A DNA stretch of 64,000 bases from Escherichia coli. Lineage in GTDB: Bacteria > Pseudomonadota > Gammaproteobacteria > Enterobacterales > Enterobacteriaceae. The notes under the pieces were generated by a model, which had not been told where the DNA came from, ran no database searches, and saw only the letters and a program-made list of their open reading frames with translations. Position numbers and translations under genes: made by a program. The DNA lies in assembly GCF_030013595.1 (NCBI RefSeq), contig NZ_CP122768.1; one strand, 5' to 3'. Positions 2,766-47,102 of the stretch are shown piece after piece (position 1 is the stretch's first letter; every line of letters starts with the position of its first letter).

Positions 2766-3887
2766 ATGGAATACCAACTCACTCTTAACTGGCCCGATTT
2801 TCTTGAACGTCACTGGCAGAAACGCCCGGTGGTGTTAAAACGCGGCTTTAATAATTTTATTGACCCAATCTCTCCAGACGAGTTGGCGGGTCTGGCGATG
2901 GAAAGCGAAGTCGACAGTCGACTGGTCAGTCATCAGGATGACAAATGGCAGGTCAGCCACGGTCCATTCGAAAGCTACGATCATCTCGGTGAAACTAACT
3001 GGTCATTGTTAGTGCAAGCAGTGAACCACTGGCATGAGCCGACCGCCGCGCTGATGCGACCGTTCCGTGAACTACCGGACTGGCGTATTGATGATCTGAT
3101 GATCTCTTTTTCCGTACCTGGCGGCGGCGTCGGCCCGCATCTCGATCAGTACGACGTGTTTATCATTCAGGGTACCGGACGTCGTCGCTGGCGAGTGGGC
3201 GAAAAGCTGCAAATGAAACAGCACTGCCCGCACCCGGATCTGTTACAGGTTGATCCGTTCGAAGCCATCATTGATGAAGAACTGGAGCCAGGCGATATTC
3301 TTTATATTCCGCCAGGATTCCCCCATGAAGGCTACGCGCTGGAAAATGCGATGAACTATTCCGTCGGTTTTCGCGCACCAAATACGCGGGAACTGATTAG
3401 CGGATTTGCCGATTATGTGCTGCAACGTGAACTGGGCGGCAACTACTACAGCGATCCGGATGTCCCACCTCGCGCTCATCCTGCGGACGTTCTACCGCAA
3501 GAAATGGATAAACTGCGTGAGATGATGCTTGAATTGATCAACCAGCCGGAACACTTTAAACAGTGGTTTGGCGAGTTTATATCCCAGTCACGTCATGAAC
3601 TGGATATCGCGCCACCAGAGCCGCCTTATCAGCCGGATGAAATCTACGATGCGCTAAAACAAGGTGATGTGCTGGTGCGCCTGGGTGGTCTGCGCGTATT
3701 GCGCATTGGCGACGACGTGTATGCCAATGGTGAGAAGATCGATTCCCCGCACCGTCCGGCACTGGATGCGCTCGCCAGCAACATTGCGCTGACCGCGGAG
3801 AATTTTGGTGATGCATTGGAAGATCCGTCATTCCTCGCGATGCTCGCAGCGCTGGTCAATAGCGGGTATTGGTTCTTCGAAGGGTAA
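2766..3887 (+). CDS. roxA: ribosomal protein-arginine oxygenase (JmjC/cupin family, YcfD/RoxA)
   Basis: ORF 2757-3887; start placed at the internal Met of MEYQLTLNW; synteny between phoQ and pepT. Confidence 0.85.
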   Translation: MEYQLTLNWPDFLERHWQKRPVVLKRGFNNFIDPISPDELAGLAMESEVDSRLVSHQDDKWQVSHGPFESYDHLGETNWSLLVQAVNHWHEPTAALMRPFRELPDWRIDDLMISFSVPGGGVGPHLDQYDVFIIQGTGRRRWRVGEKLQMKQHCPHPDLLQVDPFEAIIDEELEPGDILYIPPGFPHEGYALENAMNYSVGFRAPNTRELISGFADYVLQRELGGNYYSDPDVPPRAHPADVLPQEMDKLREMMLELINQPEHFKQWFGEFISQSRHELDIAPPEPPYQPDEIYDALKQGDVLVRLGGLRVLRIGDDVYANGEKIDSPHRPALDALASNIALTAENFGDALEDPSFLAMLAALVNSGYWFFEG

Positions 3888-3935
3888 GTTTGGATTTAAG
3901 CCGGATGCGGCATCACATGCCGCATCCCTTTTCGC

Positions 3936-5162: not shown

Positions 5163-5411
5163 GTAGTCACCCTCACTTTTTGTGACAACATTATTAAGAA
5201 GCAAGAAAAGACAAACATTGCGTCAGGTCACTTTTACCCCTGCAAGCGGGAATATTTATCAGCATTACCTTAATGAATATAAAGCTAAGCCAGTAATTCA
5301 CAACAAAGATTGGCGATTCAAGCGGTTTGCCGTAGAATTACCGCCCTCATTAAGAGTCACCAAGGTGGTTAACCACAAACCCCGCATCGGTAAGCCATCC
5401 GTTGCGTTTAC

Positions 5412-6548
5412 ATGGGACAGAGTAAAAAATTGAATAAACAACCGAGTTCGCTTTCACCGCTGGTGCAATTGGCGGGAATTCGCAAATGCTTTGATGGTAA
5501 AGAGGTCATTCCCCAGCTGGATCTGACTATCAACAATGGCGAGTTCCTCACGCTGCTTGGCCCTTCTGGCTGCGGTAAAACAACCGTTCTTCGCCTGATT
5601 GCAGGTCTGGAAACTGTTGATTCCGGACGCATCATGCTGGATAACGAGGACATCACCCACGTTCCGGCGGAAAACCGCTATGTGAACACTGTTTTCCAAA
5701 GCTACGCACTTTTCCCCCACATGACCGTGTTCGAAAATGTGGCCTTTGGGTTACGCATGCAAAAAACCCCCGCTGCTGAAATTACGCCCCGCGTGATGGA
5801 AGCCCTGCGGATGGTGCAGCTGGAAACCTTCGCTCAACGCAAACCGCATCAGCTCTCTGGTGGTCAACAGCAACGCGTCGCCATTGCCCGCGCGGTGGTT
5901 AACAAGCCTCGTCTGTTGTTGCTGGATGAGTCGCTCTCAGCGCTGGATTACAAACTGCGCAAGCAAATGCAGAACGAGCTGAAAGCGTTACAGCGTAAGC
6001 TTGGCATTACATTCGTCTTCGTGACTCACGACCAGGAAGAAGCACTCACCATGTCGGACAGGATTGTGGTGATGCGCGATGGTCGCATTGAGCAAGACGG
6101 CACGCCGCGTGAAATCTATGAAGAGCCGAAAAACCTGTTTGTTGCTGGGTTTATTGGCGAAATCAATATGTTTAACGCCACTGTCATCGAACGTCTAGAC
6201 GAGCAGCGCGTACGCGCCAACGTTGAAGGCCGCGAATGTAATATCTACGTTAACTTCGCCGTTGAACCGGGGCAAAAACTGCATGTTCTGCTGCGCCCGG
6301 AAGACTTACGTGTTGAAGAGATTAACGACGACAACCACGCTGAAGGGCTGATTGGTTACGTTCGCGAGCGTAACTACAAAGGCATGACGCTGGAGTCGGT
6401 TGTTGAACTGGAAAATGGCAAGATGGTGATGGTCAGCGAATTCTTCAATGAAGACGATCCTGACTTTGACCACTCTCTCGACCAAAAAATGGCCATTAAT
6501 TGGGTAGAAAGCTGGGAGGTCGTACTGGCTGATGAAGAACACAAGTAA
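5412..6548 (+). CDS. potA: spermidine/putrescine ABC transporter ATP-binding protein
   Basis: 378-aa ORF with Walker [10 protein letters not shown] and ABC signature LSGGQQQR. Confidence 0.95.
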
Positions 6549-32453: not shown

Positions 32454-32528
<75 letters not shown>

Positions 32529-32531
32529 ATA

Positions 32532-32607
<76 letters not shown>

Positions 32608-32609
32608 AC

Positions 32610-32686
32610 TGGACCGCCACCGGGGACTCGAACCTCGCACACTCAACTTAAAGGGTTGACGCTCTTTCCCGATGAGCTAGTGGCGG
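32610..32686 (-). tRNA. tRNA with nominal anticodon UUU (Lys) but atypical anticodon loop (C at position 33)
   Basis: Acceptor ccgccac/gtggcgg, GGTTCGAGTCC T-loop, anticodon arm tcaac-CCTTTAA-gttga; one mismatch in the T-stem. Confidence 0.45.
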
Positions 32687-32687
32687 T

Positions 32688-32763
32688 TGGTGGCCCTTGC
32701 TGGATTTGAACCAGCGACCTGGCGATTATGAGTCGCTCGCTCTCACCACTGAGCTAAAGGGCC
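32688..32763 (-). tRNA. tRNA-Ile2 (anticodon CAU, ileX/ileZ-like)
   Basis: Sequence closely resembles E. coli minor tRNA-Ile (GGCCC.TTAGCTCAGTGGT.AGAGC…GACTCATAATCGC…GGTTCAA.TCC…GGGCCACCA). Confidence 0.7.
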
Positions 32764-36108: not shown

Positions 36109-36264
36109 TTACTCCTCAGGTTCGTAAGCTGTGAAGACAGCGACCTCCGTCTGGCCGGTTCGGATTCGTACCTCGCAGAGGTCTTTCCTCGTTACCAGTG
36201 CCGTCACTATGACGGTTAAACAGATGACGATCAGGGCGATTAACATCGCCTTTTGCTGCTTCAT
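36109..36264 (-). CDS. hok: Hok/Gef-family type I toxin (51 aa), absent from the ORF track
   Basis: Hand translation: MKQQKAMLIALIVICLTVIVTALVTRKDLCEVRIRTGQTEVAVFTAYEPEE; SD aggag upstream; overlapping short mok-like frame; hallmark Hok TM domain and conserved Cys. Confidence 0.85.
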   Translation of the reverse strand: MKQQKAMLIALIVICLTVIVTALVTRKDLCEVRIRTGQTEVAVFTAYEPEE

Positions 36265-36554
36265 AGCCTGCTTCTCCTTGACCTTTCGGTCCGTAAGAGG
36301 CTAATCTCTATGTGTCGCATAGATATGGCCTCAGATTAATGTTAAGCGTCTTGCAGGACGCGTAATGTTAACTGGGGCTTTTCTCTATCTGCCTTTTGGT
36401 GTTCATGCCTGAGGCAGATAGCCTCAAGCACCCGCAGCAATTCTACTTAACTCTCCTTTTCCCGCAAACCGTTTTTATCCCCATCGGCAAATCGAATACA
36501 CCACCAACGCCACCGCCATCGCAATTCCTACTGTAGTGAATGCCTCAGGCCAGG

Positions 36555-41166: not shown

Positions 41167-41689
41167 ACGAACCCCTGGCAGACATTTGTTTATCTGCAAA
41201 GTAATATTGGTATTGCTGACGATACGCGTGCTTGAAAGCAATAGCTTTTTCTATAAGCTCGTCAGTCTCACGTTCCACAACAGCTGGATCCGCAAAAAGC
41301 AGCCCGGACTCCACCACATCGCCATATTCTTTGTTTAACCCGGCGATCATGTACGTAATGCTTTTTCCGTCAGTAATTTCACAATACAACCTGAAATCGC
41401 TGATCCGGATAGCCTCCATAATTGCCGGAATCAGCGCCGTGAATTTTTCCCGCTTATCCCTGGTGTCGATAGCTTTCCAGCGTTCGAATATCTTCACCCG
41501 GTTAACGCCCAGCGCCCGTTGATCAACCGCGCCATCATCAAACGTGACGCGTTGAACATCGATGTTCGGGCGTTCTTTCAGAGCCCAGAAGGCTTCCGTG
41601 ATTAATATCGTCGCCTGCTCCTGTGTCATTCCTGGTCGGCACACCCAGGCATCCAGAGCCTCACAAACCTGTTCAGGGGTGATTTTCAT
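41138..41689 (-). CDS. hypothetical early protein (YdaT/cII-position)
   Basis: 183-aa ORF between the cro-like and O-like genes. Confidence 0.4.
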   Translation of the reverse strand: MKITPEQVCEALDAWVCRPGMTQEQATILITEAFWALKERPNIDVQRVTFDDGAVDQRALGVNRVKIFERWKAIDTRDKREKFTALIPAIMEAIRISDFRLYCEITDGKSITYMIAGLNKEYGDVVESGLLFADPAVVERETDELIEKAIAFKHAYRQQYQYYFADKQMSARGSYEYRCTTMG

Positions 41690-41900
41690 TGTTCAACCGC
41701 CCCGCCCGCTTTGCCTTACGATATTCGTCATAAACTTTGGGGTCGTACTGAAGTTCCCCGCCGGATGCCTCTTGCAGGCGCATCGCGCGACCTTCAGGAA
41801 CCAGTTCCCCCCATGCAGCAATGCTTGCCAGCCTAACTCCTGCGGCATTGGCAAGCTTTGTTTTGCTGCCAAAAAACGCTATAGCATCAATTTTCAACAT
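41673..41900 (-). CDS. Cro/YdaS-like HTH regulator
   Basis: 75-aa ORF divergent from the repressor gene. Confidence 0.6.
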   Translation of the reverse strand: MLKIDAIAFFGSKTKLANAAGVRLASIAAWGELVPEGRAMRLQEASGGELQYDPKVYDEYRKAKRAGRLNNENHP

Positions 41901-41976
41901 ATCGAGCTCCTTAGATTTTCCTAAGGAAACTAGATCGTAGAGAAACCTAAGTCAAGAAAAATTAGAATTCCCTAAT
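41901..41976. promoter_or_regulatory. divergent promoter/operator region with cttagg/cctaag palindromes
   Basis: ccttagATTTTCctaagg palindrome and a further aacctaag half-site between the divergent repressor and cro-like genes. Confidence 0.55.
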
Positions 41977-42384
41977 ATGAAAAACGAAACCTTCGGTGCT
42001 CGCCTCTTACATAGGCGTAAAAAATTAAAACTGTCTCAGGCCGCATTAGGTAAGCTGGTCAAAGTGGCTCACGTAACAATTTCTCAATGGGAAAGAGATG
42101 AAACACAGCCGGCGGGGAAAAGATTATTCGCACTGAGCCAAGCGCTTCAGTGCTCACCGACTTGGCTTCTTTTTGGGGATGAAGATAAACAACCAGGCGA
42201 ACCGATCCCGGATAATCAGCCAGCCATTCTGACAGAAGATCAAAAAGAGTTACTTCAACTGTTCGACGCACTGCCTGAGTCAGAGCAAAAGGCCCTGTTG
42301 TCAGAGATGCGTGCTCGAGTTGAAAATTTCAACAAACTTTTTGAAGAACTACTCAAAGCTCGCAAAAGAAGCGCAAACAAATAA
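41977..42384 (+). CDS. prophage repressor (XRE-family HTH, cI/DicA-like)
   Basis: 135-aa ORF with N-terminal HTH (LSQAALGKLVKVAHVTISQWER); flanked by related operator motifs. Confidence 0.75.
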   Translation: MKNETFGARLLHRRKKLKLSQAALGKLVKVAHVTISQWERDETQPAGKRLFALSQALQCSPTWLLFGDEDKQPGEPIPDNQPAILTEDQKELLQLFDALPESEQKALLSEMRARVENFNKLFEELLKARKRSANK

Positions 42385-42429
42385 TCCCCTTTTTTCTCCA
42401 CACCCTGTAATAAAAAGCACAAACTTTCA

Positions 42430-42520
42430 AACACTTGTGTTTTTTACATCAAAAAACTTAGGTTTTTCTACATAAAAATCTTGACCACCAGCCTTAGGTT
42501 ATTCTAAATTTCATTCATCA
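42430..42520 (+). promoter_or_regulatory. candidate repressor-controlled early-left promoter (TTGACC -35) with two cttaggtt operator half-sites
   Basis: aacttaggttttt and gccttaggttatt flank ttgacc; same half-site as in 41901-41976. Confidence 0.5.
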
Positions 42521-42586
42521 AGACACCGCACGGTGTTCTCAGCAAACAGTTCCGCCACCCCGGCGTTAAGGGGAAATGAGGTCAAC

Positions 42587-42739
42587 ATGGATACTATCGA
42601 TCTTGGCAACAACGAATCTCTGGTATACGGCGTGTTTCCCAACCAGGACGGCACATTCACCGCGATGACGTATACCAAAAGCAAAACGTTTAAAACCGAA
42701 ACTGGCGCTCGTCGCTGGTTAGCCAGAAACACTGACTGA
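42587..42739 (+). CDS. YdfA-like small protein (DUF1391-like)
   Basis: Internal Met of track ORF 42533-42739 gives MDTIDLGNNESLVYGVFPNQDGTF… (~50 aa), first gene of the early-left operon. Confidence 0.5.
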   Translation: MDTIDLGNNESLVYGVFPNQDGTFTAMTYTKSKTFKTETGARRWLARNTD

Positions 42740-43389
42740 TGAGGCTGACGATGGAATTTAAAGATTTACCAATATCAATACAGGAAATGGCCGCTGATGT
42801 GATTCGCTCGCAACTGGCGCGGAACCCAATGATATTAGTAGATAAAGTGTTCATCAGAAATTTATCAAATCATGTCCGCAATTCTTTTACCGGACTGTAT
42901 TCATATTCGTTCACAAACAATCATTGTGTAGAAAATAAAGCAAAGCCCATTGCAGAAACGATAACGCAAAACATCAATACGAAACAAACCGAAGAAGAAA
43001 TTGACCAGTTTACCCGTGATGCTGGCTTAAAATGCAGGAAAGAAAAATCGCCATATGCGGGAAATATGTTTGTTTATGACAACCTTATCCGAATTCGTGG
43101 CGAAATTCCGACTGAATACCTGGCAAGAATTCACCAGGCATTACTTAAAAATCTGGAAACGGAAGTATTTGATGGCAATACCAACGGCTCCTTCGTGGTG
43201 TCAACTCTCGCAAAAGAGTGGGATACAGATAATCGCTGGAATGTTGCTACATGGTTATTCAGCAACAAAGCTGCTGCCCTGGAAGCTGCGGCCTGTATTT
43301 GCGACCTGCTAAGGACAGACCGCAAATACAACCTGGATGTGTATAGCTATATTTATGCTGAACACTATCCGCTATGGATTAACTGGTAA
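42739..43389 (+). CDS. hypothetical protein (moron, no recognisable family)
   Basis: 216-aa ORF; start may be 42751 (MEFKDL). Confidence 0.45.
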   Translation: MRLTMEFKDLPISIQEMAADVIRSQLARNPMILVDKVFIRNLSNHVRNSFTGLYSYSFTNNHCVENKAKPIAETITQNINTKQTEEEIDQFTRDAGLKCRKEKSPYAGNMFVYDNLIRIRGEIPTEYLARIHQALLKNLETEVFDGNTNGSFVVSTLAKEWDTDNRWNVATWLFSNKAAALEAAACICDLLRTDRKYNLDVYSYIYAEHYPLWINW

Positions 43390-43671
43390 TTACAAAGCTG
43401 TACCAGCAGGGCCACGGCGACCAGCGCCACGATTGTAATCAATGATGCCATTATAAAGCGCATTATTTAATTTATCGTCGAATGCCGATTCTGTGAGCCC
43501 TAGATCTGAATGAGTTTTTAATAACCCTGATTGCCTGAGTTGATTAACCAGGCATTCAATCTGTTTTTCAATAAGCGGATGTATTGGCTTGTTTGGCATT
43601 TTATCCTCCATTGAAGTTACTGGTTGAGAATGGAGACCACACGTGACAGCGTGTTGTCGTGCACCGGACAC
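43390..43671 (-). CDS. hypothetical small protein, convergent with the upstream gene
   Basis: Track ORF 93 aa; probable start at internal MEDKMPNK (~73 aa). Confidence 0.4.
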   Translation of the reverse strand: MSGARQHAVTCGLHSQPVTSMEDKMPNKPIHPLIEKQIECLVNQLRQSGLLKTHSDLGLTESAFDDKLNNALYNGIIDYNRGAGRRGPAGTAL

Positions 43672-43929
43672 GGATAAGAATCCGGCACTGACAGTTTACT
43701 GAAAGGATATATCCCTGAAAAGTCAGGGCATAACGCGAAAGCGCACGGCGGAGGTGTCTTTTCCTTAGAAGGCTTGTCGTTAGATTTCTTCGATTGTGCG
43801 CTTCCGGTTGTAGCACTCCGCGAAATGGCGCGGCGGTAAGTATGGCGGGGTTATTCCTTCCCCGTTGAGGACACCGGGTTGTCAGGTTGACCATACGCTT
43901 AAGTGACAACCCCGCTGCAACAACCCATG

Positions 43930-43988
43930 TTGATTACCTTTTGGTGGGTATCCGTTTTTTGTTTTCCCTTGTGATACCCGCCCTTTTT
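43930..43988 (+). ncRNA. DicF-like small RNA (terminator-ended)
   Basis: Hairpin ggtgggtatc…gatacccgcc plus T5 at 43943-43988, about 185 bp upstream of the DicB homologue; Qin-like gene order. Confidence 0.45.
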
Positions 43989-44173
43989 AAAGTGAATTTT
44001 GTGATGCGGTGAATGCGGCTCAGCGCACGCGGAACAGTTAAAAAAGTGATCGGTACTCTGTATTTGTTTTATGGAGTTGGTTTCCCTGTATTCCGGCGTT
44101 AATTGTTAACTGGTTAACGTCACCTGGAGGCACCAGGCACCGCATCACAAAATTCATTGTTGAGGACGCGATA

Positions 44174-44362
44174 ATGGAAACGTTATTACCAAACGTCAAT
44201 ACGTCTGAAGGTTGTTTTGAAATTGGTGTCAGAATCAGTAACCCTGTATTTACTGAAGATGCCATTAATAAGAGAAAACACGAACGGGAGCTATTAAATC
44301 AAATATGCATTGTTTCAATGCTGGCCCGTTTACGCCTGATGCAAAAAGGACGCTGCCAATGA
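44174..44362 (+). CDS. dicB: cell division inhibitor DicB homologue
   Basis: 62-aa ORF METLLPNVNTSEGCFEIGV.ISNPVFTEDAINKRK…ICIVSMLARLRLM, matching my recollection of Qin DicB. Confidence 0.75.
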   Translation: METLLPNVNTSEGCFEIGVRISNPVFTEDAINKRKHERELLNQICIVSMLARLRLMQKGRCQ

Positions 44363-44562
44363 ATACAGCATTTGCACTCGTTCTGACAGTTTTTCTTAAT
44401 ACAGGCGAACCAGTCGATCTTGTTATTGGTATACATGACTCAATGAAAGAATGCATGGCTGCCGCAGCGGAACAGAAAATTCCCGGCAACTGTTATCCGG
44501 TTGATAAAGTTATTCGCATGGACAATAACGAAATCCCGGCAGGACTTAAAACAGCACCGTAA
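44359..44562 (+). CDS. YdfD-like small protein
   Basis: Internal Met of track ORF 44305-44562 (MNTAFALVLTVFLNTGEPVD…), ~67 aa, immediately after dicB as in Qin. Confidence 0.5.
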   Translation: MNTAFALVLTVFLNTGEPVDLVIGIHDSMKECMAAAAEQKIPGNCYPVDKVIRMDNNEIPAGLKTAP

Positions 44563-44639
44563 TTAATATCCGGTTTCATTTTTATATGCCAGCAATGGCA
44601 GGGATTTGTTCACCCTAAAAATAGTTACGAGGTTTATCA

Positions 44640-47102
44640 ATGAGCGCTGATAAAGAAGAAATTGCACTATATTACGAAGCCAAAAATGACAAAGTCAGAA
44701 AACGCCTTGGGATTAAAGGCGGTTTTTACTGGCGCACAGCAAAAAAATTATCGATTGCAATATCACGCGGTGTTGTCGCAATGGACGATGCCGGATTTGA
44801 CGAAGAGGATTTTAAAAAACCTGTTCGCGTCCATTTACCCGTTGTGAATGACCTTCCTCCGGAAGGCGTGTTTGATACCGAATTCTGCAACCGATACGAA
44901 AAAGGCGGGGAAGATGGTATCACAATGGTACTTATCGCGCCCTCTGTTCAGGACAAACCAGCCAGCACTGACAATACCAACGTCAACGGTGAAGACATGA
45001 CTGAGATTGAGGAGAATATGCTCCTGCCAGTTTCAGGTCAGATTCTGCCTGTTCGATGGCTGGCGCAACACAACAGCGAAAAACCGATCACGCACGTTTC
45101 GCGGGACGAACTGCGCGCATTACATAACGCACAGGATGAAAAACTTCCCGCCGTTACCGCGCTGGCCATCTCAAATAAAGCAGCGCAACTCGAACCACTG
45201 GAAATTCGCGATCTCCACAAACTGGTACGCGACACTGACAAAGTTTTCCCTAATCCTGGTAATTCAGACCTGGGACTGATGACCGCTTTTTTCGAAGCAT
45301 ACCTGGGCGCTAACTACACCGATCGCGGTCTGCTTACAAAAGAGTGGATGAAGGGAAATCGTGTTTCACGTATCACCCGCACGGCTTCCGGCGCTAATGC
45401 TGGCGGCGGGAACAAAACCGATCGCAATCCGAATTTAGTACACACCTTCGATACGCTGGATGTGGAGATTGCAGCAGCCACACTTCCGATGGATTTTAAT
45501 ATTTATGAAATTCCGGGCAGCGTTTATCGTCGCGCAAAAGAAGTCGTCCGGAAGAAAGAAAGTCCGTTCAAAGAATGGTCCGCAGCACTTCGCGCAATCC
45601 CGGGTATCCTGGATTATTCCCGTGCCGCTATTTTTGCACTTATCCGGAGCGCCCACCCTGAACTTTACCTCTACAGGGTACGCCTTCAGGTGTATATCAA
45701 CGCCCACTTAACGGAGACTGATCACGAGAATCCTACCGAGGAAACTCTCGCTGCTGCACGACATACACCGGAAAAAGATATCCTGGAAGAAGTTAACCGC
45801 GAACTGGCTGCTGCTAAACACGAAACAGAAGAAGAAAAAAATAATGAGGAAAAATCACAACCGTCTGACGCAATGGCAGATGAACAGGCAACGACTGAAA
45901 CAATGGAGCCGGATACAACTGAACATCGCCAGGACACGCAATCGCTGGATACTCAGGCGCAGATAGATCCGGTTAATCAGGTAAAAGTTACCGCTGACGA
46001 AGTAAACAAAATTATGCAGGCAGCCAATATCAACCAGCCTGACGCCAATCAGTTGCTTGCTGTATCACGTGGTGAATTTGTTGCAGGGATTAGCGACCCG
46101 AATGATCCGAAATGGGTGAAGGGGATTGAAACCCGCGATTCAGTGAATCAGAACCAGCAAGAAATGGAACAGAACGACCAGAAAGCGGAAAAAAACAGCC
46201 CAAATGCGTTACAAAACGAGCCAGAAACGAAACAACCTGAGCCAGTAGCGCAACAGGAATCGGAAAAAGTCTGCACCGCCTGCGGTCAGAGCGGTGGCGG
46301 CAGCTGCCCTGATTGTGGCGCGGTGATGGGCGACGCAACATACCAGGAAACATTCGATGAAGAGAATCAGGTTGAAGTTCAGGAAAATGATCCGGAGGAA
46401 ATGGAAGGCGCTGAACATCCACACAAGGAGAATGCTGGCAGCGCTCAGGACCACGCCAGCGATAATGAAACTGGCGAGACGGCAGATCCCTTAATTGCGG
46501 TGAACGGTCATCACGTTATCACATCCACCAGCAGAGTGTGGTACCACCTGATGATCGACCTTGAAACAATGGGAACCAACACCAATGCGCCCATCGTGGT
46601 TATTGGTGCGGTTTTCTTCGACCCACAAACAGGGGAAATCGGGCCAGTATTTTATATCGTTATCAGTCTGACTGACGCAATGAATACAGGGGCTGTTCCT
46701 GACGGTGGAACCATCGAATGGTGGCTGAAGCAGTCCAGTGAAGCCAGAGCTGCCATTTTAACAGACCAGGTAAAACTGAAGGATGCCCTTTCGCGGTTTC
46801 GGGAGTTCATCAACGAATACTCAGATGAAAAATTCGTTCAGGTATGGGGTAATGGTGCAACTTTCGATAACGCAATTTTGCGCACCTCATACGAACGTCT
46901 GGACATCCCCTGCCCGTGGCGCTACTACAACGATCGCGATGTACGCACAATCGTTGAGCTGGGAAAAACCATCGGTTTTGATGCCAGAACAGCTATCCCG
47001 TTCGAAGGTGTACCCCACAATGCACTGGATGATGCCCGTCACCAGGCGAAATACGTTTCAGTAATCTGGCAAAAACTGATCCCGAGTCAGGCTGATTTTT
47101 AA
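44640..47102 (+). CDS. large multidomain protein: N-terminal domain of unknown function, acidic linker, CxxC-x-CxxC zinc ribbon, C-terminal DnaQ-like (DEDDh) 3'-5' exonuclease domain
   Basis: 820-aa ORF; C-terminus has DLET…, FDNAIL and HNALDDA motifs in exonuclease order; zinc ribbon CTACGQSGGGSCPDCG; long E/Q/D-rich linker. Confidence 0.6.
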   Translation: MSADKEEIALYYEAKNDKVRKRLGIKGGFYWRTAKKLSIAISRGVVAMDDAGFDEEDFKKPVRVHLPVVNDLPPEGVFDTEFCNRYEKGGEDGITMVLIAPSVQDKPASTDNTNVNGEDMTEIEENMLLPVSGQILPVRWLAQHNSEKPITHVSRDELRALHNAQDEKLPAVTALAISNKAAQLEPLEIRDLHKLVRDTDKVFPNPGNSDLGLMTAFFEAYLGANYTDRGLLTKEWMKGNRVSRITRTASGANAGGGNKTDRNPNLVHTFDTLDVEIAAATLPMDFNIYEIPGSVYRRAKEVVRKKESPFKEWSAALRAIPGILDYSRAAIFALIRSAHPELYLYRVRLQVYINAHLTETDHENPTEETLAAARHTPEKDILEEVNRELAAAKHETEEEKNNEEKSQPSDAMADEQATTETMEPDTTEHRQDTQSLDTQAQIDPVNQVKVTADEVNKIMQAANINQPDANQLLAVSRGEFVAGISDPNDPKWVKGIETRDSVNQNQQEMEQNDQKAEKNSPNALQNEPETKQPEPVAQQESEKVCTACGQSGGGSCPDCGAVMGDATYQETFDEENQVEVQENDPEEMEGAEHPHKENAGSAQDHASDNETGETADPLIAVNGHHVITSTSRVWYHLMIDLETMGTNTNAPIVVIGAVFFDPQTGEIGPVFYIVISLTDAMNTGAVPDGGTIEWWLKQSSEARAAILTDQVKLKDALSRFREFINEYSDEKFVQVWGNGATFDNAILRTSYERLDIPCPWRYYNDRDVRTIVELGKTIGFDARTAIPFEGVPHNALDDARHQAKYVSVIWQKLIPSQADF

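Follow-up and report, generated by a model that had tools for sequence, protein, structure and literature searches.

A convergent two-gene cassette in a hypervariable slot of the early-left region of Rac/Qin-type prophages of Escherichia coli

Introduction

What are two small genes, transcribed toward each other and ending stop codon to stop codon, doing in the early-left region of an Escherichia coli prophage? The window analyzed here is a stretch of 64,000 nucleotides (nt) of E. coli DNA (NCBI RefSeq assembly GCF_030013595.1, contig NZ_CP122768.1), in which positions are counted from the first nucleotide. The part in question belongs to a Rac/Qin-type lambdoid prophage and spans its immunity and early-left region; in the closest genome record, with 99.4% identity, the element lies beside ompW and the ydfA/DUF1391 annotation is present. 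Between ydfA and the DicF-like locus and dicB, gene A on the plus strand and gene B on the minus strand converge, and their stop codons abut at 43389/43390. A preliminary description of the window had reported the pair as abutting open reading frames (ORFs) of 216 amino acids (aa; plus strand) and ~73-93 aa (minus strand). This arrangement is borne out here, with the starts refined to give proteins of 212 and 69 aa. The same description took the pair to be undescribed accessory cargo. The pair is indeed accessory relative to Qin, and its protein families have no assigned function; however, it is not a one-off insertion but one allele of a variable slot, and the genes themselves are not new, since they occur widely and are listed in existing records, those of O157:H7 among them, as hypothetical proteins. 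New relative to the literature searched are the two-gene module formed by the C-terminal domain (CTD) of gene A and gene B, its place as one allele of a hypervariable convergent slot, and a shared leader with a masked Shine-Dalgarno (SD) sequence.

Results

The CTD of gene A and gene B are inherited as a unit

Gene A encodes an N-terminal domain, a linker, and a CTD (Table 1), and it is the CTD that accompanies gene B. The preliminary description had suggested a co-occurrence analysis across prophages; in IMG/VR viral contigs, the CTD lies convergent beside gene B in all 63 of the 63 loci that contain gene B. Among 5,426 complete E. coli genomes, the CTD is present in 575 and gene B in 596 (~11%, about one in nine), at 725 and 743 places, respectively, and the two adjoin wherever inspected, including in O157:H7. 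The carriers include Shiga toxin-producing E. coli of the O157:H7, O26, O103, O111, and O145 types, sometimes with several copies. The identities of the CTD and gene B change in step (99/99, 85/90, 83/84, and 36-41/47-54%, respectively), while that of the N-terminal domain is uncoupled from that of the CTD; e.g., locus L018 combines 49% identity in the N-terminal domain with 100% in the CTD. Recombination therefore breaks between the N-terminal domain and the CTD, and not between the CTD and gene B. Genes A and B make up a true accessory cassette of two genes that are passed on together.

The same linkage is seen in distant loci. A phmmer search against 1.84 billion representative proteins returned only two distant relatives of the CTD (P0167 and P0170), and a third allele is present in L077, a locus found with gene B. 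All three lie after cox in int-repressor-Cox (Salmonella-type) prophages. The relatives of gene A in these Cox-type loci differ in their N-terminal part, into which an XRE helix-turn-helix (HTH) domain is inserted in one of them, and each locus has a convergent gene B homologue (41-54% identity), the two genes sharing 11-53 nt at their 3' ends; overall, the pair is kept at 36-54% identity. Homologues of gene B that are convergent to CTD relatives were found in L007, L010, and L077, and the distant partners match phrog_4274, the PHROG family of gene B, with E values of 1.5e-20 (L010) and 5.4e-09 (L007).

Two further observations were made in these distant loci. By eye, residues 1 to 70 of P0170 and P0167 repeat the strand-strand-helix pattern of the CTD together with the motif I.I...IP..S.F, which suggests that the N-terminal part is a tandem duplication of the CTD fold. 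In L077, a 155-aa protein with two predicted transmembrane segments (3429-3896) precedes the gene B homologue on the same strand and has its own copy of the leader. It is related to phrog_6315 (148 aa), which has no Pfam match and serves as an alternative antisense partner in class 1 slots (see below); homology of the 155-aa protein to SieB was tested and rejected.

Block exchange between functionally independent neighbors has to be weighed against the cassette. Gene A would then be a variable early accessory gene (e.g., for counter-defense) and gene B a moron, the two being linked by their location. The variable segment is flanked by ydfA and the N-terminal domain of gene A on the left and by the leader on the right. 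Variable genes amid conserved flanks are a common feature of the accessory regions of phages (bioRxiv 10.1101/2023.04.06.535777), and the class 1 plus-strand genes of the slot have two different minus-strand partners or none. The 63/63 co-occurrence, the location of the recombination breakpoint, and the retention of the pair with overlapping 3' ends at 36-54% identity, where both the left flank and the N-terminal part of A differ, make functional independence an unlikely explanation.

Both ORFs are genuine genes

Genes A and B are both genuine genes under purifying selection. The ratio of nonsynonymous to synonymous substitution rates (dN/dS) is 0.28 over the full length of gene A; between the window and O157:H7 alleles it is 0.16 for the CTD and 0.27 for gene B, and the values for a pair of distant alleles are 0.17 and 0.15, respectively. 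The ratios of 0.15-0.27, the strong SD sequences, and the hundreds of intact copies show that the pair is more than chance ORFs. The idea that one or both are chance ORFs or decaying remnants draws on the label of pseudogene ("missing N-terminus") that the Prokaryotic Genome Annotation Pipeline (PGAP) assigns to gene A in two near-identical records (L001, 6371-6886; L003, 3755-4270). It is refuted by the intact ORF in both of these records and by the purifying selection, and we give it almost no weight; the label is an artifact, the likely cause of which is that the variable N-terminal domain differs from the reference protein.

The ORF of gene A reaches up to the ATG at 42739 (42739-43389, 216 aa). 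The ATG at 42751 is the likely start, since GAGG is located six bases upstream (42741-42744), the 212-aa homologues begin with MEFKDLP, and the PHROG match starts at ORF residue 5. For gene B, the longest ORF covers 43390-43671 on the minus strand (93 aa). The ATG at 43599 is the likely start, judged from the GGAGG at 43605-43609; the in-frame upstream ATG and GTG codons, which the 73- and 93-aa forms need, are not kept in frame in relatives.

The pair is one allele of a hypervariable convergent slot

In Rac/Qin-type prophages, ydfA is directly followed, within the early-left operon, by a hypervariable convergent slot, and the pair in the window is one of its alleles. The plus-strand gene of the slot retains a common 50-aa N-terminal domain and exchanges its CTD, and the minus-strand gene is exchanged whole while its leader is retained. 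Unrelated C termini carry the same N-terminal domain (phrog_1363, 6937, 9419, and others), and most of these genes sit after ydfA, with one in the early region of Stx phages. Six C-terminal classes of the plus-strand gene were distinguished, each with its own minus-strand family (phrog_4274, 10348, 10133, 7249, 8894, and others), and class 1 occurs with two different partner types or with none. The minus-strand partners were picked by anchoring on the conserved leader and SD sequence; a long ORF antisense to the conserved dicF leader was rejected as a spurious partner. Gene B has no detectable homology to the other minus-strand partner families. Together, the variable C termini and the leader-anchored partners place the left border of the slot inside gene A and the right border at the start codon of the minus-strand gene, so that the N-terminal domain and the structured leader are common to every allele.

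This arrangement resembles other variable hotspots of phages, such as the P2/P4 defense hotspots and the accessory regions, in that many unrelated cargo alleles occupy a fixed site between conserved flanks (PMC9122126; bioRxiv 10.1101/2023.04.06.535777). It differs from them in its borders, which fall inside the A gene, after the N-terminal domain, and at the start codon of an antisense gene. None of the slot cargo seen matches a known defense system.

As the preliminary description had noted, K-12 Qin has only ydfB and ydfC at this site, i.e., in the same ydfA-dicF interval. These encode proteins unrelated to A, and homology between the N-terminal domain of gene A and YdfC was tested and rejected; moreover, they can coexist with the pair, since some prophages hold ydfB, a ydfC-like gene, and the pair together. 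Qin retains the leader without an antisense gene. In L014, a HigB toxin/HTH antitoxin pair (1897-2561) is inserted between the repressor gene and ydfA; this interval is a second variable site, adjoining the slot.

Predicted structures of the two proteins

As in the preliminary description, neither protein has a motif that can be placed: no Pfam, NCBIfam, PADLOC, or PDB match was obtained for either, and both belong to PHROG families of unknown function only. The match of gene A to phrog_2151 is full length (ORF residues 5 to 216 against profile positions 1 to 212 of 212), as is that of gene B to phrog_4274 (E 2e-41, positions 1 to 69 of 69), its sole PHROG match. Of the checks that had been proposed, structure prediction was carried out with AlphaFold2 for both proteins, and the structure searches gave generic folds only.

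The model of A has an overall predicted local distance difference test (pLDDT) score of 62.5. The N-terminal domain is modeled as two helices (residues 8 to 24 and 32 to 51). Its invariant residues are M1, K4, L6, P7, Q11, A14, L22, K32, N37, V42, R43, F46, G48, and L49, and about 20 representative relatives with other C termini carry it. The CTD is highly conserved, is modeled with pLDDT scores of 74-89 (residues 100 to 200), and matches ferredoxin/ACT-like folds only in a generic way. Its isoelectric point (pI) is 4.6-5.0 in all lineages.

Protein B is modeled as a soluble helical hairpin (helices 8-24 and 37-61; pLDDT 73). It is hydrophilic, with a grand average of hydropathicity (GRAVY) of -0.46, and basic, so that the charges of the CTD and B are complementary in all lineages (B pI, 7.9-9.9). 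Its sequence has the look of a Fis-type HTH protein; this candidate was rejected, as the model has two long helices rather than three and no HTH family matches. Homology to SieB was likewise rejected (hhalign probability, 0.25%). The O157-type allele of gene B contains a run of seven A at codons 4 to 6 (L006, about 5180-5198), and a -1 frameshift at this run occurs in 7 of the 63 viral-contig loci (MPNKKEIRLLKNRLNAW*; IMG/VR L070-L076). These frameshifts could be sequencing error, decay, or slippage-prone expression.

Homologues of A and B are confined to prophages of Escherichia and Salmonella. The 132 homologues of gene A all come from these two genera, 35 homologues of gene B were collected, and a profile search found nothing beyond Escherichia and Salmonella. 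No homologue was found in a scan of one genome per GTDB species, and tblastn of B against 50,697 phage records gave no match, while A matched through its N-terminal domain only. PADLOC-DB v2.0.0 yielded no family at E values up to 1 for A, B, or the long form of B, the library being that of 2023, with later systems outside it. Judged by sequence homology, the pair belongs to no characterized family. Papers on dicBF and on cell-division screens do not cover A and B.

A shared leader predicted to mask the SD sequence of gene B

The minus-strand genes of the slot, though unrelated, all share a leader of ~87 nt that is predicted to fold into three stem-loops (SL1 to SL3; Table 1). In SL3, the anti-SD sequence CUCCAU pairs with AUGGAG, which overlaps the SD sequence (GGAGG, 43609-43605). 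The z-score of the leader is -2.4, and SL1 and SL3 are found in the RNAalifold consensus. SL1 does not vary, and one of its pairs, U.G, is valid on the minus strand only. The stem sequence of SL2 varies (ACACG/CGUGU, CUCCAC/GUGGAG, CCCAAC/GUUGGG, and UCCCGA/UCGGGA). Of the seven variants folded, six have a hairpin at this position in the minimum free energy fold, and L077a folds in another way. In L077, the leader is duplicated in tandem, and a different gene follows each copy; the leader was also seen in L002 (about 2590-2640) and L010 (about 5821-5905). K-12 Qin has kept SL1, SL2, and the anti-SD sequence and lost the antisense gene. No Rfam family matches the leader, which could serve as an anchor for recombination or as a portable element of gene regulation.

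Gene B is antisense to the early-left operon, and the preliminary description had argued that it needs its own promoter in the gap upstream. A candidate with 8 of 12 consensus matches does lie within that gap. Its sequence is invariant across the window, K-12, and O157, and the predicted transcript start is near G43686, with which the GCCGGA stem of SL1 begins. For ydfA and gene A, the promoter-like site between the dicA-like repressor gene and ydfA is a candidate early-left promoter of the dicB-operon type that would drive both; its position agrees with that of the DicA-repressed promoter described upstream of ydfA in Qin (PMC5069750). No terminator was detected at the junction of A and B (z-scores of +0.3 to +0.6).

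The face-to-face transcription units without a terminator could also point to B as a gene that chiefly regulates or brakes the early-left operon, its transcription damping read-through into DicF and dicB in the lysogen, with A being controlled by B or titrating it. The toxicity of the downstream dicF and dicB (PMC5069750) would give such a brake a purpose, B is basic with a conserved Arg-Gly-Pro tail, the AT-hook-like RRGPAG of which would perhaps bind DNA, and one A-type relative contains an XRE HTH domain. On the other hand, transcriptional interference alone needs neither a conserved protein (dN/dS, 0.15-0.27) nor allele-specific partners, B has no detectable HTH or other domain for DNA binding, and K-12 Qin retains the leader though the gene is lost. 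We regard a primary role as a brake as improbable.

Neighboring features

Table 1. Coordinates and properties of genes A and B, their parts, and the surrounding features in the window
Feature	Position	Strand	Description and evidence
Cro/YdaS-like gene	41673-41900	-	Gene order
dicA-like repressor gene	41977-42384	+	Gene order
Promoter-like site, dicA-like repressor gene/ydfA interval	42481-42510	+	TTGACC-18-TAAATT; consensus scan only
ydfA	42587-42739	+	50 aa; DUF1391 family; phrog_751, E 7.9e-36; conserved left flank of the slot
Gene A	42751-43389	+	212 aa; ORF; phrog_2151, E 3.4e-97; "Ybl81" in some records
Gene A, N-terminal domain (aa 1-50)	42751-42900	+	Predicted helical hairpin; common to all plus-strand slot genes whatever the C terminus
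Gene A, linker (aa 51-99)	42901-43047	+	Predicted disordered, charged; pLDDT <50 (residues 49-99); GRAVY -1.2
Gene A, CTD (aa 100-212)	43048-43386	+	Acidic α/β, order β-β-α-β-β-α-β; allele specific; co-inherited with gene B
Gene B	43390-43599	-	69 aa; ORF; phrog_4274; predicted two-helix hairpin; invariant C-terminal RRGPAG..L tail
Structured 5' leader of minus-strand gene	43600-43688	-	SL1, 43688-43661; SL2, 43658-43635; SL3, 43634-43607
Gene B candidate promoter	43693-43721	-	TTTTCA (43721-43716), 17-nt spacer, TAAACT (43698-43693); read from the sequence
DicF-like locus	43925-43990	+	Right-hand neighbor outside the pair; divergent core, terminator hairpin and U-run; alignment with K-12 and O157
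dicB	44174-44362	+	62 aa; downstream gene of the same early-left operon as ydfA/gene A; ORF; annotated in near-identical records
Gene order 3' of the pair			Conserved noncoding stretch with DicF-like element, dicB, DUF1482 gene, RecE-like exonuclease

The DicF/DicB module that the preliminary description had placed to the right of the pair stands with respect to dicB; the DicF core, however, is replaced by divergent sequence. In the window, a divergent stretch of ~46 nt takes the place of the 53-nt DicF core of Qin, with both flanks nearly identical to those of K-12 and O157, and the hairpin has a z-score of -3.5. The Rfam model of DicF (RF00039) gave no match at the gathering score in the whole window, nor at E values up to 1 in 41500-45000. 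The locus may represent a DicF allele that differs in the sequence that pairs with targets. Between it and dicB, the conserved spacer (43995-44151, plus strand) has a sub-threshold match to STnc100, a Salmonella small RNA family (34.5 bits; gathering score, 47; E 4.5e-05). The same prophage also contains a sok antitoxin RNA of a hok/sok-type locus (36262-36433, minus strand; 108 bits) and, at 32457-32763 on the minus strand, four clustered tRNA genes.

Discussion

The tight co-inheritance, the allele-specific pairing, and the conserved opposite charge of the two proteins suggest that the CTD and B are probably a cognate, directly interacting pair. The layout points to when each would be made. 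Gene A would belong to a DicA-repressed early-left operon (ydfA, gene A, the DicF-like locus, and dicB) and, being repressed, should be made only on derepression of the prophage. Gene B has its own leader, in which SL3 would mask the ribosome-binding site, and so is probably expressed in the lysogen at a low, controlled level. Since no terminator separates the two genes, the opposing transcription units should interfere with each other and make expression mutually exclusive, with B being made in the lysogen and A in early lytic growth. The reading that we favor, tentatively and at less than even odds, makes B a factor that is expressed in the lysogen for exclusion or for the protection of lysogeny, and A an early neutralizer that exempts the resident phage (self-immunity). 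On induction, A would let the resident phage escape its own B, and convergent early transcription would shut B off concurrently. Prophage defenses with built-in self-immunity exist, BstA being an example (bioRxiv 10.1101/2020.07.13.199331), and antisense, independently transcribed genes of prophages are typically accessory loci (PMC7067206). The support for the defense or exclusion function that the preliminary description had considered consists of this general tendency and of the analogy in position with sieB of Rac (see below).

Several observations weigh against this reading. B is a tiny, soluble protein, unlike membrane exclusion proteins of the SieB type. Gene B is frameshifted in seven loci, in one of which (L070) gene A is also truncated and in six of which A is intact, and in L019 gene A is truncated with B intact; as one gene is broken beside an intact partner in both directions, neither is strictly dependent on the other or addictive in a repressed prophage. 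The one-to-one pairing of slot alleles would also result from block exchange via the conserved flanks, with no functional link between the genes. The Cox-type and Qin-type loci share the leader of gene B, so that these contexts are related, though long diverged, and not fully independent. The candidate promoter of gene B falls below the scan threshold, and two supplements of K-12 transcription starts have no entry at the predicted antisense start. Finally, no paper mentioning A, B, or their PHROG identifiers was found in the literature search.

The same co-inheritance and cognate alleles also fit a toxin and antidote with the polarity reversed. In that case, the CTD of A would be a growth-inhibiting or host-takeover early effector, like DicB and DicF, and constitutive B would inhibit A, shielding the lysogen from leaky early-left transcription; on induction, A would be released by the decay of B together with convergent transcription. 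This explanation is nearly as good as the exclusion reading and, like it, is to be held with doubt; taken alone, we think it unlikely. The early-left operon is known to carry toxic inhibitors of cell division (PMC5069750), and it may be speculated that the invariant C-terminal tail of B is a degradation tag. However, A is intact in the six loci with a frameshifted B, and it has no toxin-like domain or catalytic motif, its fold matches being generic; a Cys and a His that are conserved among the E. coli alleles of A are lost in distant alleles.

Gene organization also sets the pair apart from the type II toxin-antitoxin systems, with which it shares two adjacent, co-inherited small genes. A and B are convergent, stop to stop or with overlapping 3' ends, and are not a co-directional, autoregulated bicistronic operon; nor do they show homology to a known toxin or antitoxin family in Pfam, NCBIfam, or PDB. 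The resemblance to polymorphic toxin-immunity cassettes, which speaks for a toxin and antidote, lies in the constant N-terminal region, the exchangeable CTD, and the small cognate partner that changes with it. In contrast to those cassettes, the partner in the slot is convergent, class 1 has two partner types or none, and A has no recognizable toxin or secretion/trafficking domain and lies in a repressed early operon of a phage.

For the exclusion and self-immunity reading, the nearest comparison in position is sieB of Rac, which is convergent to the ydfA homologue ydaF (ydaF on the minus and sieB on the plus strand) with a 4-nt 3' overlap and is antisense to the early-left operon. There, sieB faces ydaF directly, whereas B in the window faces A, which follows ydfA, and Rac has no partner gene of the A type. 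SieB is a membrane protein of 162 aa, while B is soluble, has 69 aa, and has no sequence relationship to it. The SieB protein of P22 has an escape function for the resident phage, and SieB of lambda and P22 is known with Esc self-protection. The sas RNA switch of SieB is cited in PMC7067206. BstA-aba is alike in concept only, as a prophage factor that harms the phage's own lytic growth, combined with an exemption of the resident phage encoded at the locus (bioRxiv 10.1101/2020.07.13.199331). BstA, however, is a large single protein with a DNA immunity element, whereas the pair in the window consists of two small proteins. Taken together, the pair departs from all of these systems in its convergent genes, in cassette borders that fall within a gene and at a start codon, and in having no known effector domain.

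In a wider view, the slot of Rac/Qin-type and related Cox-type prophages could house a family of polymorphic two-protein modules, in each of which an early-operon protein with the common N-terminal domain and its own CTD would have a small cognate partner encoded antisense and expressed from the shared, riboregulated leader. Such modules would be an unrecognized class of exclusion/self-immunity or toxin/antidote systems, in which the convergent layout would make expression in lysogeny and in lytic growth mutually exclusive. We consider this generalization rather doubtful.

The pair is a good experimental candidate and not yet a discovery. Its leader, which is predicted to mask the SD sequence, is a candidate regulatory RNA element outside Rfam. 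If the pair and the other slot alleles are cognate modules of the exclusion/self-immunity or toxin/antidote kind, they would represent new, small, and tractable systems of phage-phage or phage-host conflict, and a clear case of gene-internal cassette exchange, in which all alleles have a protein domain in common at one border and an mRNA leader at the other. They would also help to explain the retention of "cryptic" Rac/Qin-type prophages.

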